Notes: generated by a model from the sequence alone, not told the origin. A stretch of 64,000 bases of DNA from an uncultured Gammaproteobacteria bacterium (GCA_964536725.1 CAZHYJ010000005.1:3084-67083), one strand, 5' to 3'; counted from the stretch's first letter, positions 18,364 to 57,080 are shown. Numbers and translations: made by a program.

Positions 18364-18436
18364 GCGCCCATAGCTCAGGGGTTAGAGCACCGCCCTTATA
18401 AGGCGGGGGTCGATGGTTCGAAGCCATCTGGGCGCA
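18364..18436 (+). tRNA. tRNA-Ile with anticodon UAU (reads AUA)
   Basis: Hand-folded cloverleaf: acceptor gcgccca/tgggcgc, D stem gctc/gagc, anticodon stem ccgcc/ggcgg with loop CTTATAA (34-36 = TAT), T stem gatgg/ccatc with loop TTCGAAG, discriminator A. Body resembles a tRNA-Ile(GAU) sequence (…CTGATAAG… in the standard isoacceptor). No encoded CCA. Confidence 0.75.
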
Positions 18437-18438
18437 CT

Positions 18439-24806: not shown

Positions 24807-25592
24807 CTATTTGCTTAATTTAGAAAAAAACGCTTCCCACGCTTCCCACGGCACCACACCTTCAATCTTTTCACCATTTACAAAGAATGTCGGCGTGCCA
24901 TTCACACCCAATTTAAACCCATCGGCATAGTCACGATTTATTTCCGTCACCATCGTTTGGTTATTAAAACAGTCGGTCAATTTTTTGTAATCCAACCCCG
25001 TCAGACCCGCTACTTCCTTTAGATCATTAGCAGAAATATTCTCGGGCAAACTATCCTGATTTGTATACAACCAATCATGCACTGGCCAAAACAACCCTTG
25101 ATTGTAAGCACAACCGGCCAACTCTGCCATTTTGTTGGCCCCTGGATGCAATGACTCCACGGGAAAATCACGCACAATCAATTTTATTTTTTGCCCATAT
25201 TTTGCCAGCACTCGTTTCATAATCGGCAAAGCTGTTTTACAATTTGGACATTTAAAATCAACAAACTCCACAATCACAATCTCAGCATTGGCATTCCCTA
25301 AAAATGGATCGTCAGTAGTTTCAATTTCAGTGCGCTTAACAAATGCCGGGCCAGTATTACTGCCTGAAGCACTAAATTCACCATATATTTTTTGCGTCAG
25401 TGCCGCTCCACGCCCCGCCTTAATCTCACGCCAGTAATAAAATGTCAGACCACCAAAACCCAAAATACCCGCCACCACCAACGCCCCCAACCCAACCAAA
25501 GCCACTTTCCAACCACTGTGATACCAATGTTTGACAGGAAAAGGTTGATTTTGCATATGTATAGTAATAGTTAGACAAGCATAGTATACCAT
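24807..25592 (-). CDS. DsbA-like thiol:disulfide oxidoreductase (thioredoxin fold, membrane-anchored)
   Basis: N-terminal TM, CxxC active site (FKCPNCK), DsbA-like length. Encoded 1 nt upstream of the Cys-rich protein. Confidence 0.75.
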   Translation of the reverse strand: MVYYACLTITIHMQNQPFPVKHWYHSGWKVALVGLGALVVAGILGFGGLTFYYWREIKAGRGAALTQKIYGEFSASGSNTGPAFVKRTEIETTDDPFLGNANAEIVIVEFVDFKCPNCKTALPIMKRVLAKYGQKIKLIVRDFPVESLHPGANKMAELAGCAYNQGLFWPVHDWLYTNQDSLPENISANDLKEVAGLTGLDYKKLTDCFNNQTMVTEINRDYADGFKLGVNGTPTFFVNGEKIEGVVPWEAWEAFFSKLSK

Positions 25593-31148: not shown

Positions 31149-31155
31149 CCCCTTG

Positions 31156-31672
31156 TTCATTATTGGTAATCGCTCCCAAGTAATTGGGAAGAGGAAAGTC
31201 CGAACATCTCCAACGCAAGTTGGGAAAAAGACAGTGGGTAACGCCCACCCCCTAACCTGCAAAGTGTTAGGGCGGGAAAGCGGCACAGAGACAATACTAC
31301 TTTGTCCGCCGAAGCCTTGGCGAAGGAGGATCCAACCGACCCACCTCCGCTAAAGCTACGGCGGGCAAGGGAAAGGTGAAAAGCGCATGGAGGTTTTGGT
31401 TCTAGATCAAAGCTACTATGCCCCATCCACAGCAATGTGGAATGGTGCCAAGCCCTGTCTGATGCAAGAGCAGCCTTGCAACTGGAATATCTGGTTACAT
31501 GGAAAAGTTCGCTCGCGTTGATTCCGTTGGTAACAACGGGACAAGATAAATGATTACCTCCTGTTAAAAAAGCCAAGGCCAAAAGATACCGAGAAATCCA
31601 ATACGCGGAAAGTAGCGGTGTAAAATGGTTCGGCTCAACAACAGAAGACAAAATTCGGCTTATAATAATGAA
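31156..31672 (+). ncRNA. rnpB: RNase P RNA (bacterial type A-like), apparently enlarged
   Basis: Conserved blocks AGAGGAAAGTCCG (P4 5' strand), GGGTAACGCC-like, GGGAAAGGTGAAA, GCCAAAAGATACC, ACAGAAGACAAAATTCGGCTTA (P4 3' strand / CR-V). P1 pairs tcattatt with aataatga. Ends are approximate. The spacing between the conserved blocks is about 470 nt, against about 300 nt in E. coli M1 RNA. Confidence 0.85.
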
Positions 31673-31675
31673 ACT

Positions 31676-31706
31676 AAAAATCCGACCTTAATTGGTCGGA
31701 TTTTTT
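31676..31706. terminator. Intrinsic terminator after rnpB (possibly bidirectional)
   Basis: Stem aaaaatccgacc/ggtcggatttttt. The stop of the minus-strand ORF 31688-32047 lies inside the hairpin. Confidence 0.7.
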
Positions 31707-39514: not shown

Positions 39515-42052
39515 TTGGTTAAAATGGCAAAGGCAAAAAAACGCCTACAAGTGCGCCGTTGCGCGGTCTGTAACAAGGTGGGACACAACAAATCCACCTG
39601 CCCAAAATACCTCGCAACACTCAAACCAGCAGATCATCCTCGCACGGTTAATTTTTTTGTTCATCACGTTCAACATTCCCCCGCTCAATCACCGCATGTC
39701 ATTGATTTAAAAAGAGAAACCTCAAGTCATTGGAACAACGTGGAAACCGTATCACCTACTGAATCCACCAACCCACTATATCATTTTTATCACGAGGCAA
39801 AATCCGAAGTGGCACAACCAAACCAAAGTCTTTTTTCTGCCCCACTACAAAATGCCGGGCGACCGGAAATGATTGTAGAAGAAAAAACTGTTGAACAGAA
39901 AAAAGTAAAATCATTACCCCAAAAAACAAAACGTCAATTTACTAACCCCTTTAAACTAATCGGCGGAAAAGTCAAAAATACCCACACACAAATTTCCAAC
40001 AAAATCAAAAACAGCCTTACCACTACCAATGATGCAGTTGTTAATACAAAAAATAATTTAAAAAAAGCGCTCCAACCAAATTTGAAAAAGATGGCTTGGG
40101 CAATTGCACTAATGATATTAGCAACCATCGTCCCTGGACCAACTTGGGGATATTATCAAAATCTAAAACACACTACCGCCAACATCGCCGCCGATGGTGC
40201 CGCCGGTTTTATGTCCCTTCAAGATTCCACGACCGCCTTGATGCAAGCCAACATGCCATTGGCACAGGCATCCATCTCCGAAGCGCTAAGCCGTTTTGAT
40301 AGTGCGGTCACCACCATGGAAACAAAAAATAAATTTCTCCAGAGTTTTGCTTCAGCATTACCCTTTATCGGTGACGAAGTTTCTAGCCGACAAAAATTAG
40401 TACTTGCCGGACAACAACTCACATTAGGTAACACATACTTACTCAAAGGCCTAACTGAAAGCCAAAACGCTCCCTCCTCCACTCTCACCGCGCGTGCCAA
40501 TATTATTATCACCCACTTACGAGCAGCCGTTCCCAACTATGAAAAAGCTTTAGAGAATTTGCAAGCCGTCAAACCCGATGTTTTACCTTTGCAATATCAA
40601 GGTGTGTTCAAAGATTACCGCACACTTTTTGCCTCCATCTTCACTGATTTAAAAAACTTGGCCAATTTAGGCGATGCTGTCCAAGAGGCGTTCGGCGGTA
40701 AAGGACTACGCCGTTATTTATTAATCTTCCAAAACGTCAGCGAGATTCGTGCGACTGGTGGTTTCATGGGTAGCTTCGCCATTCTCACTGTGAAAGATGG
40801 TGAAATTATTAATCTAGAAGTCCCCCCAAATGGTACCTATGATTTAAAAAAACAACTGGACATCTACGTCGAGCCACCTCGTCCCATGTTACTATCCAAT
40901 CGCCGTTGGGAATTCCAAGACGCCAATTGGTTCCCTGATTTCCCGGCTAGTGCCGAAAAAATTCTTTGGTTCTATCAACACAGTCGCAATGAAACCGCTG
41001 ATGGTGTGATTGCAATCAACTCCACTGTTTTGGAAAGAATTTTAGGAGTAATCGGCCCCGTGACTGACGAGAAGCGCGGCTTGGTTTTAACCCAAGAGAA
41101 TGCGATCAACACGATCCAACAAAAAGTAGAAACCTGGGACGCAGAGAAAAAAGATTATCGACCAAAACAGATTATCACCGACCTCTCCCAAACCTTCTTG
41201 GAATATTTTAAAAACATCGAACCACAAAATCTTTTACCACTGTTAGTAAACTTACAAGAATCGCTTGGACAAAAAGAAGTCCAGGTATATTTTACTGATT
41301 TCAAAACCGAAAGAGCCATCAAAGATTTTGGTTGGGGCGGACAAATTCTCAACACCAATGCCAATCAAGATTACTTGATGGTAGTAAACACCAACATCCA
41401 AGGACAGAAAACTGACGCCAACATCAAACAGGTTATCAGCCACCAAGCTGTGATTGCGGATGACGGTTCAATCACCGATACCGTGACGATTGCTCGCACC
41501 CACACTGGCATAAACGACGGTAGTTTGTATGGTGGAACCAATATCGACTACATTCGTCTGTATGTCCCACAGGGCACTGAACTAATCTCTGCCAACGGTT
41601 TTACCTGGCCTGAAGAAAAATATTTCCGCGCACCAGATAGCTGGACCAAAAAAGATGCATTTTTGGCAGAGATGGAAAAAGAAATTAAAATCGATGCCCA
41701 AAGCGGCACGCGTATCACGAACGAATTTAACAAAACAGCTTTCGGCAACTGGATAATCACCGAGCCGGGGCAAACTTCGCAGATTGAATTTGTCTATCGT
41801 ATCCCAAGCAATGTATTTTCGACTGAAAAACAATCTGATAAAGTCCAGAAAAAAACTGCACGTTACCAACTAATCACTCAAAGACAGTCTGGTTCAGAAA
41901 CTAGTTTTGAAAGTCAGATAATTTTACCGAATAATTTAACACCGGTTTGGAAAGATGGTCTTGAAACTGAAGTGGCCGCCAATGGCATGGTGATTGCCCC
42001 ACAACAATTGAAGAGTGACCGAATCTGGAGCTTGGTGGCTGAACAAAAGTAA
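39515..42052 (+). CDS. Large membrane-anchored extracytoplasmic hypothetical protein with an N-terminal Zn-ribbon-like motif (probable start ATG 39524)
   Basis: RRCAVCNKVGHNKSTCPKY gives a CxxC..H..C knuckle. One TM (WAIALMILATIVPGPTWGYY) and about 620 aa outside. No catalytic motif recognised. Confidence 0.5.
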   Translation: MVKMAKAKKRLQVRRCAVCNKVGHNKSTCPKYLATLKPADHPRTVNFFVHHVQHSPAQSPHVIDLKRETSSHWNNVETVSPTESTNPLYHFYHEAKSEVAQPNQSLFSAPLQNAGRPEMIVEEKTVEQKKVKSLPQKTKRQFTNPFKLIGGKVKNTHTQISNKIKNSLTTTNDAVVNTKNNLKKALQPNLKKMAWAIALMILATIVPGPTWGYYQNLKHTTANIAADGAAGFMSLQDSTTALMQANMPLAQASISEALSRFDSAVTTMETKNKFLQSFASALPFIGDEVSSRQKLVLAGQQLTLGNTYLLKGLTESQNAPSSTLTARANIIITHLRAAVPNYEKALENLQAVKPDVLPLQYQGVFKDYRTLFASIFTDLKNLANLGDAVQEAFGGKGLRRYLLIFQNVSEIRATGGFMGSFAILTVKDGEIINLEVPPNGTYDLKKQLDIYVEPPRPMLLSNRRWEFQDANWFPDFPASAEKILWFYQHSRNETADGVIAINSTVLERILGVIGPVTDEKRGLVLTQENAINTIQQKVETWDAEKKDYRPKQIITDLSQTFLEYFKNIEPQNLLPLLVNLQESLGQKEVQVYFTDFKTERAIKDFGWGGQILNTNANQDYLMVVNTNIQGQKTDANIKQVISHQAVIADDGSITDTVTIARTHTGINDGSLYGGTNIDYIRLYVPQGTELISANGFTWPEEKYFRAPDSWTKKDAFLAEMEKEIKIDAQSGTRITNEFNKTAFGNWIITEPGQTSQIEFVYRIPSNVFSTEKQSDKVQKKTARYQLITQRQSGSETSFESQIILPNNLTPVWKDGLETEVAANGMVIAPQQLKSDRIWSLVAEQK

Positions 42053-42084
42053 CTAAAATAACTTAAAAAATATTTTAAAAAAAT

Positions 42085-44016
42085 ATGGCTGAAGAAACCC
42101 CTTCTTTTACTACCCAACGTATTTCCAAAGAACCAACAAAACCAAAAAGACGAATAATACGAAAGCGTGCAACAGCTACTGCTGCGCCGCGCGCACGTCG
42201 CCCATCCGTTCCAAAAGAACCATCTATCAACACCGAAAGAATTAATCAGCAACTAAACGACATCTACCGTGATGAAAGCGGCAAAATCCCTGATATGAGT
42301 AGAATAAAAATTAAAAAAGAGGGGTCAATATTCAAGAAGTTTTTTATCTTCTTAATCGTCGCTGGGTTGCTAGCTGCCGCCGCGTGGACCGGTTTTTTCA
42401 TGATGCCAAAAAATAATATCTCCGACACACAAGTTGCCGTCACTATCGAAGGACCAGAGAATCCGGTTTTTGGCGCTACCACTACTTATGATATAGTTGT
42501 CGCCAATCAACAGGCAGTAGGAATTAAAAATATCAACCTCACTGTACGCTATCCTGAAAGCTTTGTCTTTGGCACTAGCACCATATCCCCCACTAATCAA
42601 GGCAACACCGAATGGAATTTGGGTGACTTAGCAGGAAACAAAAACAAAAAATTGCAAATTAGCGGTGTCTACTATGGTGCTCTAGACCAAGACCAGTCCT
42701 GGCGAGCATCAGCACGCTACAAACCAGAAAATTTCAACTCGGAATTGCAACGTAGTGCCGTTAAAACAACGCGTATTACTCGCTCCCCTTTCTCTTTGAC
42801 TTTAACCGGACCGGATAAAATTGCTATTGGCAACGAGGTAACATATCTCATCACTTTAGAAGATCGCGAAGGAAAACCAAATCAAAAATTTGTTATTCAA
42901 AATACCTGGCCAACCAATTTCTATCCCACCAGCTCAACGCCAGCACTAGAAAAAAACAACAGTTGGATATTTGTTTACACTCCCCCAACGTCAACTACTT
43001 CTACTCCAGTCTTACCGATTAAACAAACTTTTAAAATTACCGGCAAGTTTAGTGACAGTGACCAAAAAAATGTCACAATGAAATCTGCCTTACTTTTTGT
43101 CACCAACAAAAACAGCTATCAAATCGGTGATGCTTCGGTGACTACTGAGTTAATCAAAAACTCTGTTTCACTCCAGCTCGCTATCAATGGATCGCTCGAG
43201 AAAATCACCACTCGACCGGAGGAAAATTTAAATGTTACTGTTGCGACAAAAAATGAAAGTGCAAGTAAATTAACTAAAGCGACGATCAATATATATTTCG
43301 ACGCCCCGGCTTACAAAAAAACCAGCGTAATTGACTGGGCGAAGATTACTGACAAGCTGGATGGCGACGTGGTGGGTAAACAAATTTCTGATACTATCCG
43401 CCAAGGAAAAATTACCTGGAACAGCTCCAAATTAAGCACCCTAGGCAACTGGAAAGCGGGCGGAGAAATTCAGTTCGATTTCCAAGTACCACTCAAAGAT
43501 ACCAAAGCGGTTGATTGGAGTACGATTAGCGAGACGAAAATAGTGGCCACCCCAGAGATTGTTTTCACTGACTCCGCTGGCGCAGTACAAACCATTACCG
43601 GTAAACCACTCGAGATTATCATCAATTCCGATCTAAGTTTGGAAGTGAGAGAAGAGATTGAAAACACCGATGGTAAAGATGTCCACAATGTTACTTGGGT
43701 AATTAACAACAGCGTCCATCCACTCAAGAATATTACCCTAAGTGCTGACCTCTACGGCGATATCACAGTAACCAATCCAATTGTCGCTCCAGCCGGTACT
43801 GTCACCTATGACGCAAAAGAGAAAAAGATAACCTGGGAGATACCACAGATGGGTAGTGAGACTGATGTCTTAGCACTCCCCTTCACTATCACGATCAACA
43901 AAAAGAATCCCACGCAAAATCTGTTGGTGAGTAAAGTTCGAGTCCGGGCTGAGGATACGGTCACAGGTGAAAAGTTAGATTTAATGGGCGAAGAAATACC
44001 GTTGGTGACTCAGTAA
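42085..44016 (+). CDS. Large membrane-anchored surface protein (hypothetical; beta-rich repeat-like ectodomain)
   Basis: Basic N-terminal tail (KPKRRIIRKRATATAAPRARRPS), one TM (FFIFLIVAGLLAAAAWTGFFMM), and a roughly 520 aa Thr/Asn/Val-rich ectodomain with recurring motifs (ITLS.DLYGDITVTN; NLTVRYPESF). Confidence 0.5.
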   Translation: MAEETPSFTTQRISKEPTKPKRRIIRKRATATAAPRARRPSVPKEPSINTERINQQLNDIYRDESGKIPDMSRIKIKKEGSIFKKFFIFLIVAGLLAAAAWTGFFMMPKNNISDTQVAVTIEGPENPVFGATTTYDIVVANQQAVGIKNINLTVRYPESFVFGTSTISPTNQGNTEWNLGDLAGNKNKKLQISGVYYGALDQDQSWRASARYKPENFNSELQRSAVKTTRITRSPFSLTLTGPDKIAIGNEVTYLITLEDREGKPNQKFVIQNTWPTNFYPTSSTPALEKNNSWIFVYTPPTSTTSTPVLPIKQTFKITGKFSDSDQKNVTMKSALLFVTNKNSYQIGDASVTTELIKNSVSLQLAINGSLEKITTRPEENLNVTVATKNESASKLTKATINIYFDAPAYKKTSVIDWAKITDKLDGDVVGKQISDTIRQGKITWNSSKLSTLGNWKAGGEIQFDFQVPLKDTKAVDWSTISETKIVATPEIVFTDSAGAVQTITGKPLEIIINSDLSLEVREEIENTDGKDVHNVTWVINNSVHPLKNITLSADLYGDITVTNPIVAPAGTVTYDAKEKKITWEIPQMGSETDVLALPFTITINKKNPTQNLLVSKVRVRAEDTVTGEKLDLMGEEIPLVTQ

Positions 44017-45591: not shown

Positions 45592-45620
45592 TTGACGCAC
45601 CACTTAAAATATTATATAAT
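45592..45620 (+). promoter_or_regulatory. Sigma70-like promoter for the clpC-like gene (TTGACG-17-TATAAT)
   Basis: Near-consensus hexamers with 17-nt spacing, about 55 nt upstream of the ATG at 45676. Confidence 0.6.
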
Positions 45621-45675: not shown

Positions 45676-48198
45676 ATGAACATCCTCGATCGCTTCTCCA
45701 CCCACCTCAAAAACACCCTTACCAAAGCCATAAAAGTGGCTACAGACTTGAGAAATCCGAACGTCGAACCAATCCACCTTTTGTATGTTTTGTTTGGTGA
45801 AAAAGGGTCAATCGGAGCGGAAGTTTTAAGTCGTTTAAAAATCGGACAGCGTGAAACGGAAAACATCATTTTAACCTTACCCGCTGAGCCAGAAACCGGC
45901 ACGCAAAATACCCCGACAGAGGTCATCGCCCCCCTCTCCCCCTTAACCAAAGGTGCTTTGGAAAAAGCGATGCTCATTGCCGAAGAAAATCACCATAACT
46001 ATGTCGGCACTGAACACTTACTGCATGCTTTGGTTAACTTAGGCGACCAGAAAATTTTAACCCTTTTAAAAACTTGCCACGTCGAGCTAGGAGTAGTTAA
46101 CAAACAGTTGGAAACCGTACTTAACAACGCCACCCAATTCCCCCAAATTAGTGAAGCGATGGATGTTTTGGATAAGTTTACGGGAGATTTGGACAGTCAC
46201 AGGGATCCAGTGTCCGCCGCACCAAAAAACAACAAAAAAAACAACCGCTCCAAAGAAAGTGCTTTGGATTTTTTTGCTACCAATTTAACTGCCAAAGAAA
46301 ACCAAAAAAATATCGACCCGGTAATCGGTCGCGAAAAAGAGATCGAACGCATTATCCAAATAATCTGCCGCCGTACCAAAAACAACCCCGTACTACTTGG
46401 TGATCCGGGTGTCGGCAAAACTGCCATCGTCGAAGGATTAGCTCGCCGCATCACTTTGGGTGAAGTTCCAGACCTGTTGTTAAACAAAAAAATCTACTCA
46501 CTCGACATGGGACTCCTGATCGCCGGCACCATTTACCGCGGTGAATTCGAAGGCCGGCTCAAACAAGTGATCGACGAAGTGGCACAAGACCCCAACATCA
46601 TTCTTTTCATTGACGAAATACACAACATCGTCGGTGCTGGTTCGAACCAAGGCACAATGGACGCCGCTAACATTTTAAAACCCGTACTAGCTCGTGGCCA
46701 AATTCGTTGTATCGGTGCCACTACTCCAGGAGAATTTAAAAAACATATTGAAAATGACGCTGCGTTGGAGCGCCGTTTCCAACCAGTGATGGTCGGTGAA
46801 CCATCCGCTGAGGAGACGATAAAGATAATCGAGGGAGTGAAGAAGAATTACGAACTTTACCATCGGATTAAAATTGAACCGGATGCCATTGAGGCCGCTG
46901 TCCGACTTTCAATGCGTCATATCGCCAACAAATTTTTACCTGACAAAGCGATTGATTTGATTGACGAAACTGCCGCGGCTAAACGTATTAAATCAAAACC
47001 CTTGTCCTGGCAGAACAAATTGTTCCACCTGCGTCAAAAACTTGAACAAACAATTTTGGATAAAGAAAATGCTGCCCGAACAGACAAATTTGATGAGGCA
47101 GTAAAACACAAAAAGATTGAGGAGGAAATTAGAAAGGAGATAATAAAAATCGAAAAACAGGCTGAGGAAAAACAACCAAAGATGATTGGCTCAATTACCG
47201 CCAAAGATGTTGCGGAACAGCTTTCCAAAATTACTGGCGCCAAATTAACTGACTTGAATAAAGAAGAAAAGGTGTCGATTGCCGAAAAATTAAAAACCCA
47301 AATCGTCGGCCAAGACGAGACAATCGAAAGTGTCGCCAAACAAATTCGTCGCGCTGAATTGGAACTGTCACACCCTGACCGACCACTGGCCTCATTTTTG
47401 TTCGTCGGTGCTAGTGGTGTAGGCAAAACTGAACTAGCCAAAGTACTAGCCGAGACCCTCTACCCCGGCCGTGACGCCCTCATCAAATTGGACATGAGCG
47501 AATTCAACGAGGCATTTGGTGTTTCCAAATTACTCGGTTCCCCCGCTGGATATATCGGCTACCGTGAGTCAAACCAATTCACCGACAAATTAAAATTAAA
47601 CCCCTACTCCGTAGTACTGTTTGATGAAATCGACAAAGCCCACAAAGATGTCGCCAAACTACTTTTACAAATTTTAGAAAACGGGGAAATTACTGACTCC
47701 ACGGGCAAGAAAATTTCTTTAAGACATGGTATAATAATACTAACAACCACCGTCGGAGCCGAAGACCTCCAACGGGGAAATTTTGGTTTTAGTGAGACTA
47801 CAAATTTAACCAAAGAAAATCTAAAAAAAGTTACTGAAACGTTAAAACAACATTTCTCACCTGAGGTGATCAACCGCCTTGATCAAATCTGTCTGTTCAA
47901 TCCCCTGACATCCGCCGACTTAGTTAAAATTGCCGAATTAGAAATCAAACGTCTCAATACTCGGCTCACCCACTATCAAACGAATATTGTCGCCGACGAA
48001 AAAATATTAAAACAATTTTTAGTACAATTACCAAAAGAAAAAAACAGTGCCCGTGATTTAAGAAGAGAGGTGCGTGGACAGATTGAGGAATTAATTGCAG
48101 GGGAAATAATGTCCACCAAAGACGAATCCGCCTCGGGCGGAAAGATGAAGAGTAAATATCAATTAACTTTTAAAGATAACCAGTTAGCTTTAAAATAA
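45676..48198 (+). CDS. AAA+ Clp/Hsp100 chaperone, ClpC-like (two NBDs, short middle domain)
   Basis: Clp_N repeats, NBD1 [18 protein letters not shown]2 [15 protein letters not shown], sensor and arginine-finger motifs. The middle domain is about 65 aa, short relative to ClpB. Confidence 0.9.
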
Positions 48199-48199
48199 T

Positions 48200-50497
48200 A
48201 TGCCGGACGAAGCGGCACAGCCAGTAGTCGACAACGACCGAGAAACAGCAAACACAGAGCAACCAAAAGTTGGTAGTGTTAAGGTTGAAGGAGACGATAC
48301 GAAAGTGGAAAAACAAGGTAACGTATACCATGTTAATTTTGGTGGAGAAAAAGAAGTGGCAACTACACAAACCAATAAATCTCCAGTGACGACTACAGAA
48401 ACCAATGAATCTCCAAAAAACAACGTGAGCCCTTTACCACAACCACAATCGCCAACACCAACACCCGCGGCACAAACACTACCTCCGACACACACACCGG
48501 CCAATACTGGTAATACAAAACCAAACAATTCTCAAATAAATAAACAAAATCCAGCAACCAGATCGACCAAACCAGATATAGACAAAAACGCTCCTTCCTC
48601 AGCACCGACTGCCAAAATTCCTTCAACACAAACAAACGGCCAACCTTCAGCAAACCCAGAAGGCGCCACTACAGGCGAAAACCAATCACCGGCTACTCTT
48701 CCTGAACAAAACGAGGGAGAGCAAGGCACACCAACCGAGCAAGCACAAACAGCAACAACACCACCAACCAGCCAACTAAGCCCAGAACAACAAAGAGAAG
48801 CCGGCCAAGAAATGAAAAAAGACTCCTTAGGAAAAAGAATTTCTGATGCTGGAAACAAGCTGGCAGATGTTGGACAAAAAATTGCAGATACTCCAGAAAA
48901 TATTAGAAAAAAAGGCAGGGCCATAAAAAATAAAGCTAAGGCTTTAAAAAAAGGGGCTGCTGCCGCTATTAAAAACCCCAAACAATTCGGGAAAAATTTG
49001 GGAAAAAACATGGGCAAGAAAATTGCCCAATCAGGTGTACGCAACCTAGATAAAATGGCAAAAGGCGCACAAAACAAATTAAAAGACGCTGCCAATAGCC
49101 TGCGTACTAGCGGCATGAAAAAAAGAAAATTATTAAAAGATATAAAAAAAATCGACAAAGAATTAGACGAATTACAAGGCAGTCTTACTAGTTTAAAAGC
49201 TTCAAAAGCACTATTAGCACTAAAATTTTTCTTCCCCGGTCTATACAGCAAAATTGCCGGTGTAACAGAAATAAAGAGCGGTGCATCACAAAAAGTGAAA
49301 GTGGCCAAGCTTGAAGCCCAAGCCACGGCACTCAAATCCGCCAAAGCTGCATTACAAACAGCGCAGTTTGCGGCTGCGGTATTAGACGCCTTGGTGTCCA
49401 TCGGAGAGATGATTGCCTATACATTATCTACGATTTTGCTACCGGTTTTAATTATTCTCTTATCGCCACTATTACTAATGATATTAGTACCAATATATCT
49501 TACACTCGGTGGAAAGTTCTCGAGAATTTTTAAACAATTAGTAACGCAAATAAACAAAGTCCTCGAACCATTAGAAAAAACATTAGTTATAGAAAAAAAG
49601 AAATTAGCACTAATGAACAATAAAAAAGACAAACGCGCTGAAATAACAAAGGTAGGAACCGAAGAAGAGATCCAAAGAAAAAGAGAACAGGAACCAGAGG
49701 CGCAACCAGAACCAAGTAAACCAGAAGAGAAAAAACCTGAAGAAACAGGCGCAAACACAGAAGAAACAAAAGCAACAGAACCAGAAAAAACTCCTGAGAC
49801 AACACAATCACAATCATCAGAAGGAAATGCCCCGCAAGAAGCTCCTGAAGCACAACCAGCAGAAACAGCAAATCCAACAGAAACAGAAACGACTACACAA
49901 CCACAGACCGGAGCCGAAGAAAGTGCAGAAGGAAAAGAGGCGGAAACAACAGAGACACCCAAACCTGAAACACAGGACATTACAAAACCAACGGCACCAA
50001 AACCCGAAGTACAAAAACCAACTGCACCACCAACCGAGGTACAAAAACCAGAAGAACAATCACAAAATAACAACGCAACAAAAGAAGGCGGTCCGGAAAC
50101 AGTCGAACAACCAACACAAAACCAAACACCTGGGAAAACTGCACCACAACCAATGCAAACACCAGCGGCTCAACAACAAAATCAAGTCGCGGCACCGCAA
50201 CCTTCCGTCCAACCAGCTCCACCACCACCTGCAGCAGAGCCGACCGAACAAGCACAGACAGCAGAAGGTCAGCCAGCGAGTGCAGAAGAAAAACCAGCCG
50301 CACCACCAACTGAAGAACAAAAACCAGAAACAACCGAACCACAAGAAACCGAGGTGCAAACCGACGGTCGATCGATTAAAGAACCAAAAATAGAAATGAA
50401 AGTGGACGTAAAAGTAAAAACCAAAGGCAAAGATGGCAAACAGTCAAAAATCAAAGTCGACGAAGAAAAAGGTGAAAACATAAAATTAGCCGCTTAA
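48200..50497 (+). CDS. Low-complexity Pro/Thr/Gln/Glu-rich protein with a central basic amphipathic region and two TM helices
   Basis: 765-aa ORF starting 2 nt after the clpC stop. Long PT/Q/E-rich tracts (PTAPKPEVQKPTAPPTEVQKPEEQ) and TM segments IAYTLSTILLPVLIILLSPLLLMILVPIYLTLG. Antisense ORFs here are low-complexity artefacts. Confidence 0.55.
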   Translation: MPDEAAQPVVDNDRETANTEQPKVGSVKVEGDDTKVEKQGNVYHVNFGGEKEVATTQTNKSPVTTTETNESPKNNVSPLPQPQSPTPTPAAQTLPPTHTPANTGNTKPNNSQINKQNPATRSTKPDIDKNAPSSAPTAKIPSTQTNGQPSANPEGATTGENQSPATLPEQNEGEQGTPTEQAQTATTPPTSQLSPEQQREAGQEMKKDSLGKRISDAGNKLADVGQKIADTPENIRKKGRAIKNKAKALKKGAAAAIKNPKQFGKNLGKNMGKKIAQSGVRNLDKMAKGAQNKLKDAANSLRTSGMKKRKLLKDIKKIDKELDELQGSLTSLKASKALLALKFFFPGLYSKIAGVTEIKSGASQKVKVAKLEAQATALKSAKAALQTAQFAAAVLDALVSIGEMIAYTLSTILLPVLIILLSPLLLMILVPIYLTLGGKFSRIFKQLVTQINKVLEPLEKTLVIEKKKLALMNNKKDKRAEITKVGTEEEIQRKREQEPEAQPEPSKPEEKKPEETGANTEETKATEPEKTPETTQSQSSEGNAPQEAPEAQPAETANPTETETTTQPQTGAEESAEGKEAETTETPKPETQDITKPTAPKPEVQKPTAPPTEVQKPEEQSQNNNATKEGGPETVEQPTQNQTPGKTAPQPMQTPAAQQQNQVAAPQPSVQPAPPPPAAEPTEQAQTAEGQPASAEEKPAAPPTEEQKPETTEPQETEVQTDGRSIKEPKIEMKVDVKVKTKGKDGKQSKIKVDEEKGENIKLAA

Positions 50498-50515
50498 AAT
50501 ATTTAAACAAAATAT

Positions 50516-51751
50516 ATGTCCCCCAACCTAAAACGCATCCTCCTAATCGCCGGCCTCACAATTGTCACTGCGCTGATTGCCTACGGCCTCTATTTTATGT
50601 TTCAAAAGACCGCCCCTGGAAGCAAAATCCCTGGACAAACCACAACTACTACCGGCGGAAAATTACCCACTGCCGGAGAACGCCAGCCGGGTGCCACCAC
50701 CACCCCCGGCACCATTGGTCCAGATGGACAACTACTCCCCACCGCCGGATATATCCCCCAAACCACACCGAACTATTACAAACCAACTCCGGTAACACAA
50801 ATCACTTCTGACTATGCCACCTTTCCTTCTTTAAGTAAAAATAATGCATTGCGCTATTACAATTCATCCGACGGAAAGTTTTATCGCGTTCTACCAGACG
50901 GCTCAATCAAAGAACTGGCCGACCAGGTATTTTACAATGTACAAAAAATCACTTGGGCAAATACAAAAGATGAGGCCGTATTAGAATACCCCGATGGCGC
51001 GAAAATAATCTACAATTTTGAAACAAAAAAACAAGTCTCAATTCCGAGTCACTGGGAAGACTTTTCTTTTTCTCCCGAGAGCAATGAACTCGCCGCTAAA
51101 AGCATCGGCCTCTCTCCGGAAAATCGCTGGTTGATAACTTTTAATGACGATGGTACTGGCACCAAGCTCATTGAACCAATGGGAGAAAACGCGGACAAAG
51201 TACAAATTGCTTGGTCCCCTAGCCGTCAAGTTGTTGCCTTTTCACAAACCGGCGAACCTTTAGGACTAGACAGAAAAGAAGTATTGTTGGTCGGTTTAAA
51301 CGGTGAAAATTTTAAATCAACCATTGTGGAAGGAAATGATTTTCGTCCCCAATGGTCACCTACCGGCAGCCGTTTACTTTACAGCGTCTACAGCGCACGC
51401 AGTAGCTATCAACCAGAATTATGGATTGTTGATGCCTACGGCGAAAACATCGGTGACAACCGCCAATTATTAAAAATAAATACTTGGGCAGATAAATGTA
51501 CTTTTCAAAACAACACGACTTTGTATTGCGCTGTACCACGCAACCTACCAGAAGGATCAGGAATGTTGCCAGAATTAGCTGCCGGTGTTTATGATGACTT
51601 GTACAAAATTGATCTAAAAACTGGTTTAAAAACCGGCATACCACTAGGTGCAGACTACGAAATCAACAATATTTCTTTTGACACTGCGGGAGAAAAAGTA
51701 TTTTTTACTTCCAAAAGTCAAACTGGTATTTTTGAAGTAAAATTAAAATAG
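50516..51751 (+). CDS. Membrane-anchored TolB-like beta-propeller (PD40-repeat) protein
   Basis: N-terminal TM, Thr/Pro-rich linker, then PD40-like repeats (IAWSPSRQVVAFS; PQWSPTGSRLLYS). Confidence 0.5.
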   Translation: MSPNLKRILLIAGLTIVTALIAYGLYFMFQKTAPGSKIPGQTTTTTGGKLPTAGERQPGATTTPGTIGPDGQLLPTAGYIPQTTPNYYKPTPVTQITSDYATFPSLSKNNALRYYNSSDGKFYRVLPDGSIKELADQVFYNVQKITWANTKDEAVLEYPDGAKIIYNFETKKQVSIPSHWEDFSFSPESNELAAKSIGLSPENRWLITFNDDGTGTKLIEPMGENADKVQIAWSPSRQVVAFSQTGEPLGLDRKEVLLVGLNGENFKSTIVEGNDFRPQWSPTGSRLLYSVYSARSSYQPELWIVDAYGENIGDNRQLLKINTWADKCTFQNNTTLYCAVPRNLPEGSGMLPELAAGVYDDLYKIDLKTGLKTGIPLGADYEINNISFDTAGEKVFFTSKSQTGIFEVKLK

Positions 51752-51760
51752 AATAAATAT

Positions 51761-52414
51761 ATGAAACACATCCACAAATTCTATTTGATACTCGGTCTTT
51801 CAGTCTTGGTGCTCGCGAGTATTTTTTTCTGGCAGGCAAAGAAAGCGATTAACATCCGCGTCACTCAAAATGAAACACCCTTAATCAGTGAACAAATCTA
51901 TAATATTTCCCTTGCTGATGATGAAGCGGTGCGCGGAAATCCAGGGGCAGCCATAACCATCATAGAATATTTGGATTTAAACTGCACCGATTGTGTAGAT
52001 AAATACAACGAACTCAACAACTTGGTTGACAAAAATCCGGCCAAATTACGCCTGGTATTAAAATTAGCGGACACTAGCGGACTTTTTGCTCATAACTCAC
52101 AATATGTGAACACTGCTGCATATTGTGCCAACCAACAAAAACGCTATTGGTTATTTTTAGACTCTTTAATGACCAAAGAAAAACGTTGGAGTGAAGAGAC
52201 TATTTTGGCCGCTGCCAGTGAAGCAAAAATCAACCTGACTACTTGGAACAAATGTCGCGAAAACGAAACCACAATCGCCGCAGTAAATTTATCTTTACAA
52301 CTTGCCAAAGAACTGGGTGTAAACACTTCGCCTACCATATTTGTCAACAATCAAAAAATTGACCCTCAAACAGAGGTCAGTTTTACCGAAATAATTAACA
52401 AATTTATCCAGTAA
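51761..52414 (+). CDS. DsbA-like thiol:disulfide oxidoreductase
   Basis: N-terminal TM, CxxC (LDLNCTDCVDKY), thioredoxin-fold length, and an extra Cys pair (YCANQQ...KCREN). Immediately upstream of the two Cys-rich paralogs. Confidence 0.7.
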   Translation: MKHIHKFYLILGLSVLVLASIFFWQAKKAINIRVTQNETPLISEQIYNISLADDEAVRGNPGAAITIIEYLDLNCTDCVDKYNELNNLVDKNPAKLRLVLKLADTSGLFAHNSQYVNTAAYCANQQKRYWLFLDSLMTKEKRWSEETILAAASEAKINLTTWNKCRENETTIAAVNLSLQLAKELGVNTSPTIFVNNQKIDPQTEVSFTEIINKFIQ

Positions 52415-52417
52415 AAT

Positions 52418-54016
52418 ATGACAAAAAAAGTGGCGCAAAAAGTTTTGGTAGTTGCAATATTAATGATTGCTGCCATCTGGCCGCACGCCACTCTTTTGGC
52501 CGCTACAGATTTACCAATCGGATCACCTTGTAAAGATAATTCAGACTGTAGATCGAATGATTGTGAAACAAGTGAAAAAAAAGATGCAAGCAACAACAAC
52601 TTGCGGTTTTGTGACTGTAACGATGCCGGTGACTGCCAACAACAATACGGCGCCCCAGCCAGCGGGGTGTGGAAGTGCGTAGACGGAGCGTCGGTAACTG
52701 CGGATTTGGACTATTGCATAAATGAAGCTAATAATAGAATAGAGTCAACACTGCCTGAATATGAGACTAACACTTCGTTAATGGGCAGACTACACACCGC
52801 TCTTTTTGACACCAAAGCGTTGCAAGCCACCTTGATGCAAGAAGTAATGACTTTTAAGCCCGGACTAGAAATCCGCTTACCTGGATTAGAATTTAGCGAC
52901 TTAGCAAAAAAAGTAGACGAGGAAGGCTTCTTGCATATTCCCTGGATTGGAGAATTTTTAAAAGCAATATACAATTTTGGACTTGCTATAATTAGTATCG
53001 TGGCAGTGGTGATGATAATAATGCAAGGAGCAAAAATTATTGTTTCCGGCGGCGAATCAAAAGTGGAAGGTTACAAAAAAATCGGACAGATTGCGATCGG
53101 TTTGATGATCGCTTGGGGGTCTTATGCCATACTTTATACAATCAATCCGGCGTTGGTTCAGTTTAATAGTTTAAAAGTAAAATATATTGAAAAAAAACCA
53201 TTAACACTTGAATTTTTATCTAATGAGTCATATCAAAAAATCACAGGAAATGCTGTAATGTCAAAATCTGACTCTTTCCAAAAAGCCAAAGAAATGAGCG
53301 CGGCAGCTGGTTTTGATCCTTGTGTTATGCAAGCCATCCTATTAACTGAATCTGGTGGTAATCCGGCCGTAATTGGACACGATGAAAATGCTGGCGTCGC
53401 CAAACCGATACCAGCTCGAAGAGAATTTTTGCTATCAGGAAAAAAATATTCCGGAGCAACATTTGACCCCTCTCCTGGAACCAGTAATAATTTTGATGTT
53501 AATGAGAATAAAAGAAAAATATGGAATGATGATGGTGGAAAAAATTTAAATACCGCCGTTGGCCCACCAGATTATGGACTCGATTGGAGATTCACCCACG
53601 GATTCGGATTAGGACAGATCACAATAACCGGAAAAGAATATTGTTCACCTGGTGTTAGAGGTGCAAAAAGATGTGGTAAGTGCTATACCATTCCTGAGCT
53701 ATTATCTCCACAATCTTCAATTGAAATCTCTATTTGTCTAATGAAAAAAAATATAGAAAAGGCAAAAAGTAAGGGTTGGAAAAGTGAAGACGATATTATA
53801 CGCGCCGCCTTTTGGGGATTTGCTGCTGGACCTGGCAATATACCCAGCCCATCTTCTGGTAGCGAAATACTCTACGGAAAAAAAGCAGACGGCACAAGAA
53901 AACCTGGTGATACAAAATGGGAACCATACAAACAATGTAAAAGTAATCCGACTGTACCAAAAGAATTAACACCCGACCCAGAGGATCCCAAGGAGATTGA
54001 ACCGGAACAATCGTAG
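52418..54016 (+). CDS. Cys-rich secreted protein with a VirB2/TrbC-like hairpin plus a C-terminal lytic-transglycosylase (SLT)-like domain
   Basis: Signal peptide and Cys-rich N-domain (PIGSPCKDNSDCRSNDCETSEKKDASNNNLRFCDC). Hairpin AIISIVAVVMIIMQGAKIIVSGGESKVEGYKKIGQIAIGLMIAWGSYAILYTINPAL. C-terminal LLTESGGNPAVIG ... GFGLGQIT resembles SLT family-1 motifs (ES..NP.A; GLMQI). Confidence 0.55.
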   Translation: MTKKVAQKVLVVAILMIAAIWPHATLLAATDLPIGSPCKDNSDCRSNDCETSEKKDASNNNLRFCDCNDAGDCQQQYGAPASGVWKCVDGASVTADLDYCINEANNRIESTLPEYETNTSLMGRLHTALFDTKALQATLMQEVMTFKPGLEIRLPGLEFSDLAKKVDEEGFLHIPWIGEFLKAIYNFGLAIISIVAVVMIIMQGAKIIVSGGESKVEGYKKIGQIAIGLMIAWGSYAILYTINPALVQFNSLKVKYIEKKPLTLEFLSNESYQKITGNAVMSKSDSFQKAKEMSAAAGFDPCVMQAILLTESGGNPAVIGHDENAGVAKPIPARREFLLSGKKYSGATFDPSPGTSNNFDVNENKRKIWNDDGGKNLNTAVGPPDYGLDWRFTHGFGLGQITITGKEYCSPGVRGAKRCGKCYTIPELLSPQSSIEISICLMKKNIEKAKSKGWKSEDDIIRAAFWGFAAGPGNIPSPSSGSEILYGKKADGTRKPGDTKWEPYKQCKSNPTVPKELTPDPEDPKEIEPEQS

Positions 54017-54042
54017 TTATAAAAATACTAGCTAAACAAAAT

Positions 54043-55686
54043 ATGCCAGTCAGAAAAAAAATATTCCTATCAATAATTTTTGCCTTGCTGTTTTTTGTGT
54101 TACAGACATCTACGACATCGGCTGTTGACAAACTTCCTATTGGATCGCCTTGCAGTGGGCCTGTCAGTGGCAATTCAGAATGCCGTTCAAACGACTGTGA
54201 GGGCAGCCAAAAGAAAGATGCTTCCGGCAAAACCTTAAGTTTTTGTGACTGCGTTACTGCTAATGATTGTAACATTGAATATGGCACCCCGACTACCGGA
54301 AAATGGGAGTGCAGTGATGGTGCTGCGTATACTTATAATTCTGATTATTGTTATAACGCCACCACCAGAGAAGTTAAAACAGCTTCAGGTATAAACAAAA
54401 ATGCCACCCCCATAAGCAAATTAACAGATGCAATTTTTGACTCCCCTGCCACCCAGGCCGCATTGTTAGAAAAAGTAAAAACCTTTACACCTAATTTGGA
54501 AATTACAATTCCTGGAGTTGAATTCAGCAACCTAGCAGACACCACCGACGAAGAAGGGTATTTAAACATCCCTTGGATTGGAGAATATATTGTCGGTGTC
54601 TATACTTACGCCTTGGGTATCGCTGCCATTATCGCAGCTATTATGATTATTATCGCCGGTGTACGCTGGACTACTTCTGGTGGGAACAGCGAAGCAATTG
54701 GCAGTTCAAAAAAACGTATTGGCGGTGCATTAGTTGGCCTACTAATCGCCTACCTTTCTTACGCAGTATTAAATATTATCAATCCCGGATTAACAACGTT
54801 CAAAAGTTTAAAAGTAAAATATATTGAACGAGAAGAAATTCTTTTTGGTGACAATACTATGGATGAAACAGACGACAACACTGGTATTAAAAATACTGAC
54901 AACGCTAGTGATGCTGGATTTTCAGAAAAATTTTCAGAATGTCCAATCAAAATGAGTTCAGGGCCAATTACGAAAATTGGTAAAAATAATAAACCGATAC
55001 CAGATCCAACAGGAAATCAATCTCGAAAACAAGAATTTGTTCAAAAAATATTGGACAACAAAATTCTTACCGGTGACTTCAGCAATCGTGCAATGATGGC
55101 AGCAGAAGCAGCTTCCAAATGTAAAATTTATTTTGGAACCTGCGGACAAGGAACTACTGCTATTTACGCTTTAGCTGGAGTAAACGGTAGTTTCGGCCTT
55201 AATAACAAATGTCTTAAACAAACATGTAATATGGGAGGCGATCCAATAATAAAGAAGCAAACGGTCCGTTCAGTTTACTCTACTAAGATTGGTGGTGTAA
55301 GTGTAGGAAAACTTCTACAAGGCATGATGTGCGAGGGAGTTCCTGTGTGCAAAGGCGCTGGCTGGGATGTAAACTGGAAAGAACAGTGCTTTACAGACCC
55401 AAAAGCGGCATCAAATAAATTAAAGGAGCTACTAAAAACCACCGGAAAATGGGACGAGGAGCAGTGGTTTAATGATTTGAAACCAGGTGATTATTATAAT
55501 ATTGCAAACTGGAACTCTACTTGTTCGCCAACACATTCTGCTATGTTTTTGGGGTGGAAAGACAAAGCAAACCATGTCGCATTTGAAGCAAGCGGAGATG
55601 CAGGAAATTTTTTTCGTATTTCTACGCGTGATTTTGATAAAAAAGGTGTTGTAATTATTATGATTGAAAGGCCTCAAGATAAATAA
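54043..55686 (+). CDS. Cys-rich secreted protein with a VirB2/TrbC-like hairpin plus a possible C-terminal CHAP/NlpC-P60-like peptidase domain
   Basis: N-domain PIGSPCSGPVSGNSECRSNDCEGSQKKDASGKTLSFCDC parallels 52418. Hairpin [57 protein letters not shown]. The C-terminus has a Cys (FGTCGQG), then a His about 115 aa later (THSAMFLGW), then NHVAFE. Confidence 0.5.
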   Translation: MPVRKKIFLSIIFALLFFVLQTSTTSAVDKLPIGSPCSGPVSGNSECRSNDCEGSQKKDASGKTLSFCDCVTANDCNIEYGTPTTGKWECSDGAAYTYNSDYCYNATTREVKTASGINKNATPISKLTDAIFDSPATQAALLEKVKTFTPNLEITIPGVEFSNLADTTDEEGYLNIPWIGEYIVGVYTYALGIAAIIAAIMIIIAGVRWTTSGGNSEAIGSSKKRIGGALVGLLIAYLSYAVLNIINPGLTTFKSLKVKYIEREEILFGDNTMDETDDNTGIKNTDNASDAGFSEKFSECPIKMSSGPITKIGKNNKPIPDPTGNQSRKQEFVQKILDNKILTGDFSNRAMMAAEAASKCKIYFGTCGQGTTAIYALAGVNGSFGLNNKCLKQTCNMGGDPIIKKQTVRSVYSTKIGGVSVGKLLQGMMCEGVPVCKGAGWDVNWKEQCFTDPKAASNKLKELLKTTGKWDEEQWFNDLKPGDYYNIANWNSTCSPTHSAMFLGWKDKANHVAFEASGDAGNFFRISTRDFDKKGVVIIMIERPQDK

Positions 55687-57028
55687 AAATATGAAACAAA
55701 CTATTCTGTTCCATTGTTCCCACTGCAATGCCCAATTCCAAAAATGGATTGGACGTTGTTTGGAATGCGGACAATGGGGAACGATTGAAAAGTCACAATT
55801 GATTGGTGAAAATACTAGTAAAAAAGAGGTTGCCGAATATGCTCCGGTTAAAACAGTTGGATTAAAAGAAATCGAAGGTAAAAACACTCTACGGATAAAA
55901 ACCAAAACCGAAGAGTTGGATCGCGTATTGGGCGGGGGTATCGTCCCTGGCAGCTTAATTCTCCTAGGAGGCGAACCTGGAATTGGTAAATCTACTTTGG
56001 CCTTACAACTCGCCACTCTCCTCTCCCCCACTTTGTATTTCTCCGGAGAAGAATCCGTTGAACAAATTAAATTACGCGCTGACCGTTTAAAAATTTCTGG
56101 CGCTGGTTTAGAAATCGGCAACTCATCAGTGGTGGAAAATATCATTGCTACTATCAAGACAAAAAAACCAAAACTAGCCATTATCGACTCCATCCAAACC
56201 GCTCGCTCCAATGAAGCCGACGGTGAAAGTGGTAGTATCACCCAAGTTCGTGCCGCCACTGTTAAGTTTATGGAAACAGCTAAGACTACTGGTACCACGA
56301 TTGTTTTGATCGGCCAGGTCACCAAAGAAGGTGGTGTTGCTGGACCAAAGACATTGGAGCATCTGGTGGATGTGGTGATGTATTTAGAAGGTGATAAATA
56401 TCATCAATATCGTATCCTCCGTGCTGCCAAGAATCGCTTTGGCTCTACTGATGAAATTGGTGTATTCTCAATGACCGAAAATGGATTAGAAGAAGTGAAA
56501 AATCCTTCTGCCGCCTTTTTGTCCGGTCGTGGAGATCCGGTGCCCGGTACTGCAATCACCTGTCTAATGGAAGGCACCCGACCGATTCTTGTTGAAGTTC
56601 AGGCCCTCGTTACCAAAACCAATTTTGGCTACCCACAACGCCGTGCCTCTGGATTCGATTTAAACCGCTTACAAGTTTTAATCGGTGTTTTATCCAAACG
56701 CGCCAAATTACCACTTGAATCATTTGATGTGTTTTTAAATGTGGTCGGTGGAGTTAACGTGGAAGAGCCGGCTGCAGATCTGGCGGTAATCCTCGCTCTC
56801 GCCTCCGCTTTAAAAGAAAAAACTTTACCGGCTGATTTAGCAGCATTCGGTGAAGTGGGATTAGGAGGAGAGGTACGACCAGTGGCACAACAAAAAAGAC
56901 GTTTGGAAGAAATTAAAAAAATGGGATTAAAATTTGCAGTGACACCAGTAATGAATGAAAAGATTGGTGATATAAAAATAGCACCGATAAAGAATGTGCA
57001 AGAAGTGGTGGAAAAAATAGTGAAATAA
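55664..57028 (+). CDS. radA: DNA repair protein RadA (Sms)
   Basis: Zn ribbon CSHCNAQFQKWIGRCLECGQWG, RecA-like Walker A GGEPGIGKSTL, KNRFG motif and a Lon-like C-terminal domain. Confidence 0.92.
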   Translation: MKGLKINKNMKQTILFHCSHCNAQFQKWIGRCLECGQWGTIEKSQLIGENTSKKEVAEYAPVKTVGLKEIEGKNTLRIKTKTEELDRVLGGGIVPGSLILLGGEPGIGKSTLALQLATLLSPTLYFSGEESVEQIKLRADRLKISGAGLEIGNSSVVENIIATIKTKKPKLAIIDSIQTARSNEADGESGSITQVRAATVKFMETAKTTGTTIVLIGQVTKEGGVAGPKTLEHLVDVVMYLEGDKYHQYRILRAAKNRFGSTDEIGVFSMTENGLEEVKNPSAAFLSGRGDPVPGTAITCLMEGTRPILVEVQALVTKTNFGYPQRRASGFDLNRLQVLIGVLSKRAKLPLESFDVFLNVVGGVNVEEPAADLAVILALASALKEKTLPADLAAFGEVGLGGEVRPVAQQKRRLEEIKKMGLKFAVTPVMNEKIGDIKIAPIKNVQEVVEKIVK

Positions 57029-57047: not shown

Positions 57048-57080
57048 CTCCCGACCAGAATATGGTCGGGAGTTTGTATT
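57048..57080 (+). terminator. Intrinsic terminator after radA
   Basis: Stem ctcccgacc/ggtcgggag with loop agaatat, followed by tttgtatt. Confidence 0.7.

Follow-up and report, generated by a model that had tools for sequence, protein, structure and literature searches.

Pilin-like membrane hairpins joined to exchangeable, predicted peptidoglycan-hydrolase domains beside DsbA genes in a probable Magasanikbacteria genome fragment

A 64,000-nucleotide stretch of DNA (the window; GCA_964536725.1, CAZHYJ010000005.1:3084-67083), recorded as coming from an uncultured Gammaproteobacteria bacterium, encodes three exported-type proteins in which a pilin-like membrane hairpin lies between two outer domains. 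We call them pilinA (52418-54016, + strand), pilinB (54043-55686, + strand) and pilinC (23441-24805, - strand). Two genes for DsbA-like thiol:disulfide oxidoreductases, each with an N-terminal transmembrane (TM) anchor, accompany them: DsbA1 (51761-52414, + strand) with a CTDC motif precedes pilinA, and DsbA2 (24807-25592, - strand) with a CPNC motif lies immediately upstream of pilinC. The open reading frames (ORFs) named in the original prediction, an earlier reading of the same DNA, were all recovered where it had placed them.

The three proteins share one order of parts, namely a signal-like hydrophobic stretch with an AxA-type end at the N-terminus, an N-domain, two strong hydrophobic helices and a C-domain of about 280-300 residues, so that the signal peptide and two-helix segment expected to be common to the paralogs were seen in all of them. 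The loop between the helices has 14-16 residues and ends in KK(R/I); in pilinB it reads SGGNSEAIGSSKKR. This arrangement, a signal peptide and then a pair of hydrophobic helices joined by a short positive loop, fits that of the T4SS_pilin family, named after the type IV secretion system (T4SS). In the AlphaFold2 model of pilinC, the helices span residues 96-128 and 133-163 and stand between two confidently folded domains. When all six-frame ORFs of the window were searched with the hairpin by phmmer, only the three paralogs were returned (E = 1e-44, 3e-26 and 9e-17), and the family hidden Markov model likewise found no others.

The N-domains are less uniform. A Cys-rich N-domain of the form PIGSPC..CRSNDCE..FCDC had been ascribed to all three proteins; it is present in pilinA and pilinB, whose N-domains are 48% identical, but not in pilinC, which has a different, shorter, four-Cys N-domain (PEFNPICW...C...PC...GWGKCLP). 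Since a homolog search with the pilinA/pilinB N-domain alone returned just one fragment, the census of heads carried on this type of N-domain is small. The numbers of Cys residues in the N-part and C-part are 8 and 6 for pilinA, 8 and 9 for pilinB, and 4 and 8 for pilinC. The number is even in every outer domain save the pilinB head, where the extra residue is the invariant, putative catalytic Cys367, and this parity fits paired disulfides plus one free Cys that is probably catalytic.

The hairpin of pilinA (residues 177-244; 52946-53149, + strand) represents a variant that we term type 1, and that of pilinB (residues 179-248; 54577-54786, + strand) a type 2 variant nearest to the hairpin of pilinC (24308-24517, - strand). 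The segments had been called near-identical. This description suits only the cores of pilinB and pilinC, with 65% identity over 72 residues, and not pilinA, whose hairpin is 46-49% identical to the other two. The same codon is used at just 20 of the 47 residues identical between pilinB and pilinC, which points to purifying selection behind their likeness; recent gene conversion between the two hairpins was rejected on this codon usage. Conservation in the pilinC family, taken as the average frequency of the commonest residue, falls from 0.84 in the hairpin to 0.61 in the N-domain and 0.43 in the C-domain, and many Gly, Ala and Ser residues of the hairpin are invariant, as is most of the cytoplasmic loop. 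Such extreme conservation argues against a generic two-TM anchor.

Family models place the hairpin among pilins. PilinB and pilinC matched the T4SS_pilin model PF18895 with 22.5 bits (E = 1.2e-4) and 23.1 bits (E = 8e-5), respectively, against a gathering cut-off of 26.6. Better matches were found among homologs whose hairpins align unambiguously with those of the window: among the full-length homologs of the pilinA head, 27 of 28 match PF18895 (best E = 1.3e-10), as do 64 of the 96 found for the pilinB head (best E = 2e-10), and many pilinC orthologs have precomputed matches. PilinB and pilinC also gave a weak match to the NCBIfam entry Mbov_0395, "pilin-like conjugal transfer protein", several of these homologs are named "pilin" by NCBI, and a few also match DUF6112. 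The expectation of a pilin-type hairpin, rather than one of an unrelated family, was upheld by the PF18895 matches in homologs of both heads, and family-level membership in T4SS_pilin, as judged from sequence, is solid. Homology to classical VirB2 is plausible. No window protein matched the TrbC/VirB2 model PF04956, and among the family members scanned it gave weak matches in 2 of 29 and in 2 of 97 (E = 2e-4 and 1e-3).

The C-domain of pilinA (53192-54013, + strand) is a divergent head resembling SLT, or family-1, lytic transglycosylases, with a putative catalytic Glu311 in TESGGNP (codon at 53348-53350) and a GLGQIT motif. Its own score against the SLT model PF01464 was 14-16 bits (E = 0.008-0.04; cut-off 21.3), and five homologs of the head passed that model, with a best E of 3.7e-12. 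The best sequence match in the PDB was EmtA around the catalytic E-S motif (E = 0.15). In C-domain numbering, E57, S58, G143, Q146 and T148 are invariant in 29 sequences, the 28 homologs of pilinA sharing E-S and GxGQxT. About 85 residues separate E-S from GLGQ, a stretch that is much shorter in canonical SLT domains and that has invariant motifs of its own here (GHDEN, NDD and YGLDWR). The invariant E-S and GxGQ and the five passing homologs bear out the family-1 likeness proposed earlier, and the head is a distinct subfamily of predicted lytic transglycosylases.

The predicted structure of the pilinB head has a papain-like fold of NlpC/P60/CHAP type. Cys367 (55141-55143), the first residue of helix 106-117, is kept in 96 of 97 sequences, and His498 (55534-55536), at strand 236-246, in all 96; PGD is kept in 95-96 of 96, and a third polar residue is not clearly conserved. 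Modelled fold and conserved Cys/His pair together agree with the CHAP/NlpC-P60-type peptidase suggested in the original prediction. Neither the window protein nor its 96 homologs matched a Pfam family in this domain, PF00877 and PF05257 included, and sequence searches of the PDB gave chance matches only. Since no curated model matches it, this head, if it belongs to NlpC/P60-CHAP, would be an undescribed subfamily.

The C-domain of pilinC (23444-24307, - strand) contains 8 Cys and has no recognised fold or detectable relative, in line with its earlier description as uncharacterised and Cys-rich. For the five proteins tested, PHROGs held no phage relatives, and an origin from phage holins and endolysins is therefore without support. 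A PDB search with the profile A2 gave no match either.

In the close relatives of pilinA and pilinB, N-domain, hairpin and a junction motif, [SA]L[KR][IV]KY[IV]E, are retained, and the heads are of other kinds, namely Amidase_2, Peptidase_M15_4, VanY/M15, M23 (a weak match) and Peptidase_C39_2. The Amidase_2, M15_4 and C39_2 heads pass curated enzyme models. These matches bear on the possibility that the heads are catalytically dead, or are non-enzymatic wall-binding or adhesin domains on a pilin-like stalk. Such a role would suit the pilinC head, with no relative of known fold, and the small Cys-rich N-domains, which could bind ligands; modular type IV pilins, moreover, mostly carry binding modules (PMC8179133). 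We nevertheless regard it as highly improbable, because the putative catalytic residues are invariant both in the SLT-like head (E-S) and in the NlpC/P60-like head (Cys367/His498) and because relatives carry heads that satisfy enzyme models.

In the window the junction motif reads LKVKYIE at the border of carrier and head in both proteins (53171-53191 in pilinA and 54808-54828 in pilinB, + strand). Identity matrices computed apart for the N-domain, hairpin and C-domain were incongruent. P0002 and P0003, two homologs whose heads share 82-85% identity with the pilinB head, have unrelated N-domains and hairpins just 46-51% identical to that of pilinB. Hairpins with Amidase_2 or M15 heads share 86-89% identity with the hairpin of pilinA, and the pilinA head is 71% identical to that of P0006, though the P0006 hairpin is of the other type. 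One relative even has a metallophosphoesterase as its N-domain. These comparisons of sequences show that N-domain, hairpin and C-domain have been shuffled independently among relatives.

A head swap between close strains is seen in a contig, L009, one of the related loci and contigs compared with the window (L001, L002, L007, L009, L021, L044, L060 and others). L009 is 98.3% identical to the window in DNA over 52622-54827, loses all detectable similarity over the next ~0.9 kb, and regains 98.1% identity within radA (55715-55921). The swapped cassette (54828-55714, + strand) comprises the pilinB head and the first ~17 codons of radA, and the replacement block of L009 encodes an Amidase_2 head in place of the NlpC/P60-like one. 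The left breakpoint falls in the last codon of LKVKYIE. The start of radA is replaced too (55664-55714 against L009 3109-3138), reading MKGLKINKNMKQTILFHCSHC in the window and MKKNINPIYTCSHC in L009, where the Amidase_2 gene is followed by radA after a 1-nt gap. The ~17 replaced radA codons place the right-hand breakpoint inside an essential repair gene.

A conserved N-part, a sharp junction motif and unrelated, interchangeable C-terminal heads are also the marks of polymorphic antibacterial toxins. The N-part and hairpin would then be a trafficking module, and the hydrolase would be released, for instance by cleavage near LKVKYIE, and kill competitors. The head classes agree with this, since amidases, NlpC/P60 and M23 peptidases and lytic transglycosylases occur among the wall-targeting effectors of type VI and type VII secretion systems (T6SS, T7SS) and of the X-T4SS. 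We consider a toxin function improbable. No immunity gene follows any head, pilinB starting 26 nt past pilinA and radA overlapping pilinB; orphan cassettes were not observed; there is little obvious use for interbacterial killing in a tiny epibiont presumed to live on one host; and cleavage at the junction is pure conjecture.

The setting of the genes was compared at one genome per species, which gave 50 loci with pilinC. They come mostly from Candidatus Magasanikbacteria (GTDB class ABY1) and other Patescibacteria, and the window therefore very probably derives from an ultra-small bacterium of that lineage. Many MAG records titled "uncultured Gammaproteobacteria bacterium" (L011, L013, L016, L020-L024 and others) carry a SecG/DsbA/pilinC/UvrA locus of Magasanikbacteria type, and these titles are almost certainly a placeholder or a wrong taxonomy. 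PilinC has conserved, single-copy orthologs throughout Magasanikbacteria and in related Patescibacteria. In one Magasanikbacteria genome (L044, 5613-8885), a tandem pair of pilinC paralogs lies between the DsbA and UvrA genes.

The link to DsbA is strong. Both oxidoreductases of the window match a thioredoxin-fold model (Thioredoxin_4, E = 1e-19 for DsbA1 and 1e-27 for DsbA2) and the DSBA model (E = 1e-7 and 5e-16), and each has a CxxC motif and one N-terminal TM segment that would place the enzyme outside the cytoplasm, so they qualify by sequence as DsbA-type proteins. That such an oxidoreductase stands beside both loci had been foreseen, and its conservation in relatives was strongly confirmed, with DsbA directly upstream of pilinC in all 47 species-level loci having upstream DNA. 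On the other side, uvrA (20622-23432, - strand, in the window) follows pilinC directly in a conserved position, being present in all 46 loci with downstream DNA, at a spacing of 1.3-1.6 kb in two and of a few nt otherwise.

The pilinA/pilinB locus recurs with different heads. The order propeller-DsbA-pilin-RadA, in which the first gene corresponds to 50516-51751 of the window, was found in 4 genomes, and propeller-DsbA-pilin(s)-RadA...RecG recurs as a larger unit. At this locus L001 has two heads, one of Amidase_2 type ahead of radA and an SLT-like one past it; L002 has an Amidase_2 head, and L060 has a C39_2 head preceded, as in the window, by PGM (- strand) and ClpC-like genes. In the more distant L007 (8318-11191), a 271-residue pilin-hairpin protein with a Cys-rich tail and a pilin-VanY/M15 fusion follow a pyruvate:ferredoxin oxidoreductase operon, and the closest DsbA gene lies not beside the fusion but 3.6 kb upstream.

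These neighbourhoods invite another explanation, that the proteins are housekeeping autolysins in which the hairpin is a conserved, perhaps oligomerising anchor and the head works on the cell's own peptidoglycan during growth, division or insertion of envelope machines, with no pilus and no partner. The loci lie on the core chromosome within clpC...radA and dsbA...uvrA strings kept across the order, T4SS genes are missing nearby as are adjacent immunity genes, and the short linker sets the head beside the cell's own wall. Exchange of Amidase_2 for NlpC/P60 could even be neutral if any hole-making enzyme suffices. What an autolysin accounts for less well is the conservation of hairpin and cytoplasmic loop far beyond the expectation for an anchor, the placement of the hairpin in the T4SS_pilin family, and the quick mosaic turnover of heads and N-domains between close strains, which typifies proteins facing another organism and not division autolysins with a substrate that stays the same. 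We take this explanation, the main rival, to be possible, though on the unlikely side.

We propose instead, with about an even chance of being correct, that these proteins are modular VirB2-like pilins carrying exchangeable peptidoglycan-hydrolase heads, which would dock to or polymerise with a T4SS-type pilus apparatus and cut the wall. The sequence implies export by a Sec signal peptide, with the basic loop of the hairpin in the cytoplasm and both the N-domain and the C-domain outside the membrane, where the membrane-anchored DsbA encoded just upstream would form the disulfides of the outer domains. The exchangeable heads would be a lytic transglycosylase in pilinA and an NlpC/P60-type cysteine peptidase in pilinB, and pilinC would present its conserved head of no recognised fold on the same carrier. 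From the extreme conservation of the hairpin we infer a role beyond anchoring, as a docking or polymerisation module for the T4SS-type pilus apparatus of Patescibacteria. The enzymes would thus be displayed on or at a surface structure that spans the envelope. There they would cut peptidoglycan, breaching the cell's own wall in cis, in the manner of VirB1, and most likely also that of a partner or host at the contact site. A head swap at the LKVKYIE junction would retune bond specificity, and we suggest that heads turn over rapidly because they probably also cut the partner wall. In the plasmid records of classical MPF_T loci, the virB1 lytic transglycosylase gene and virB2 are adjacent, so a pilin-transglycosylase fusion joins partners already known to cooperate.

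Published work on Patescibacteria provides a background for such an apparatus. VirB2-like PF18895 pilins, often in arrays, are widespread in the group, and the T4SS and pilin array of Southlakia epibionticum, the sole one genetically tested, is essential (PMC12102498, PMC10633639). T4SS loci of class ABY1 are reported commonly to include recG and radA (2025 T4SS survey), and two Magasanikbacteria genomes are VirB4-positive in Table S1 of that survey.

A number of observations weigh against the modular-pilin proposal. PilinA on its own gave no PF18895 match at E <= 1, and the window proteins that did match stayed below the gathering score. When a 139-sequence hairpin profile was aligned by hhalign with six genuine VirB2/TrbC proteins of MPF_T plasmids, the probability was 12% (E = 0.0025, with compositional bias possible); TM1, loop and TM2 were in register, and the match was not significant. 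The pilinC head gave no match in a PDB sequence search, has no detectable relative and shows no hydrolase signature. Large domains at both termini may be sterically hard to pack in a VirB2-type filament, and the head begins ~15-40 residues past TM2, facing the cell's own wall when membrane-embedded. No VirB4, VirB6, VirB3 or VirD4-type coupling protein was found among the ORFs scanned in the window, and no T4SS domains were listed within ~10 kb in L001 and L002, the lists for L060 and L021 being of ORFs only; an exact-protein look-up meant to reach beyond the 64 kb gave just contigs of 6.6 kb. Both loci occupy housekeeping neighbourhoods (clpC...radA and secG/dsbA...uvrA), and adjacent immunity-like genes are absent. 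We also know of no PF18895 protein that has been shown to form a pilus.

The modular-pilin proposal may be carried one step further. If the VirB2-like hairpin were a general loading module, the T4SS-type filament could be an enzymatic drill through host peptidoglycan at the contact site, with heads tracking the wall chemistry of the host. This extension is speculative and we hold it to be rather doubtful; if true, it would suggest a role for the essential and unexplained T4SS and pilin arrays of epibionts. In a 2024 perspective, what the T4SS of Saccharibacteria does was described as "completely unknown" (PMC11665869).

The nearest known proteins are the VirB2-like PF18895 pilins of Patescibacteria, such as the S. 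epibionticum array, which share the hairpin family and the phylum (PMC12102498, PMC10633639). They too occur as several divergent paralogs per genome, and ABY1 T4SS loci likewise lie near radA and recG. The accessible portions of those papers describe arrays beside virB4 and make no mention of enzyme heads. In the present proteins, by contrast, the hairpin sits in the middle of a 450-550-residue chain, between two folded extracytoplasmic domains of which the C-terminal one is a predicted hydrolase, virB4 is not found nearby, and a dedicated DsbA is adjacent. The wall hydrolases of T4SSs, namely VirB1 in Gram-negative and PrgK, TraG(pIP501), CwlT and TcpG in Gram-positive systems, belong to the same enzyme classes (SLT, NlpC/P60 or CHAP, M23). 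Their job of opening the wall matches the one proposed here, and virB1 stands directly beside virB2 in MPF_T. Those hydrolases stand alone as proteins, fitted with just a signal peptide or one TM anchor, and their genes lie within T4SS operons, whereas here the hydrolase is fused behind the hairpin, is exchangeable between strains and is encoded away from any recognisable T4SS operon.

Modular type IV pilins, for example PilB of Streptococcus sanguinis, follow the same principle of a carrier with grafted effector modules and are abundant in Patescibacteria (PMC8179133). They belong to an unrelated filament family with a class III signal peptide and one N-terminal helix, and have no VirB2-like hairpin; their modules are mostly binding domains, with no panel of wall hydrolases, and neither a DsbA linkage nor a cassette junction is described for them. 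Polymorphic toxins and the wall effectors of T4SS, T6SS and T7SS share with our family a conserved N-part, a sharp junction, recombining unrelated heads and overlapping head classes. They differ in that here immunity genes are not adjacent, orphan cassettes are absent and the N-domain varies too. Moreover, the conserved part is a membrane hairpin, and in polymorphic toxins it is a soluble trafficking domain (Rhs, CdiA, LXG or XVIPCD).

Patescibacteria VirB2-like pilins, T4SS wall hydrolases, modular type IV pilins and polymorphic C-terminal cassettes are thus each already known separately. We did not find described a VirB2-like hairpin as the constant carrier of exchangeable hydrolase heads, with a dedicated DsbA and in core-genome loci. 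The earlier impression that the fused architecture is new agrees with full-text literature searches and with the available portions of the Patescibacteria T4SS survey and reviews, none of which yielded it. Proteins of this family are already in public databases, labelled "pilin" or unnamed, and many of the entries named just "pilin" would be multi-domain predicted enzymes.

A pilin module fused to a panel of hydrolases yields a concrete hypothesis, the breaching of walls by pilin-carried enzymes, which a dedicated DsbA and strain-level head replacement both fit and which could be tested with recombinant heads and no cultivation. It gives a testable idea of what Patescibacteria "pilins" do and would carry the modular-pilin principle, known from type IV pili, over to a filament family unrelated to them. 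The heads also define two predicted wall-hydrolase subfamilies that Pfam models miss or barely detect.

PilinA and pilinB belong to a string of seven genes on the + strand (45676-57028), with successive gaps of 1, 18, 9, 3, 26 and -23 nt. The string begins with a ClpC/ClpB-type double-AAA chaperone (45676-48198; AAA_2, E = 4.5e-54, with Clp_N and ClpB_D2-small) and ends with radA (55664-57028), which overlaps the end of pilinB by 23 nt. The best sigma-70-like promoter match of the region, TTGACG-17-TATAAT (45592-45620, + strand), precedes the chaperone, and the best bidirectional terminator-like hairpin (57048-57072, + strand) lies just past radA; both are consensus matches only. In Bacillus subtilis, radA directly follows clpC in a single operon. 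The envelope genes of the window (those for a 765-residue protein, the propeller, DsbA1 and the two pilin fusions) look as if they had been inserted into this clpC-radA pair. L060 has the clpC-type...radA arrangement with envelope genes in between as well, and L001 and L002 show part of it.

The second gene of the string (48200-50497) encodes this 765-residue low-complexity protein, rich in P, T, Q, K and E and devoid of Cys, with a hydrophobic block of ~40 residues in the middle (TM-like segment, residues 398-439). It matched no family in Pfam, NCBIfam or PHROG, and the relatives' protein in this position varies in length (573 residues in L002 and 313 in L060). The third gene (50516-51751) encodes a membrane-anchored protein with weak PD40/TolB-like beta-propeller signals in PD40 and TIGR02800 scans. 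It had been taken for a TolB-like propeller, of which the weak PD40-like signal stands and the TolB assignment does not, since a single sub-threshold PD40 repeat (E = 0.011) was found and the TolB model TIGR02800 gave 23.4 bits over ~70 residues against a cut-off of 343. It is at most a predicted PD40-like propeller, not TolB. Among solved structures it had no meaningful sequence match, and its homologs lie directly upstream of DsbA in L001, L002 and L060 (E = 2e-216 to 4e-160).

Upstream of the string (39515-44016) are genes for an 845-residue DUF4012 protein and a 643-residue protein with a weak DUF11 match, both domains being of surface-protein type. The window has two UvrA-like genes less than 20 kb apart, the one after pilinC (936 residues; Pfam-scanned) and another at 1991-4579 (862 residues; judged from its N-terminal sequence only). 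Most bacteria read AUA with a lysidine-modified CAU tRNA; here ARAGORN reported a tRNA-Ile with anticodon TAT (UAU) at 18364-18437. A bacterial class A RNase P RNA (138 bits) occupies 31154-31678, about 525 nt against a model of 367 positions, and is overlapped by long, spurious ORFs of the other strand.

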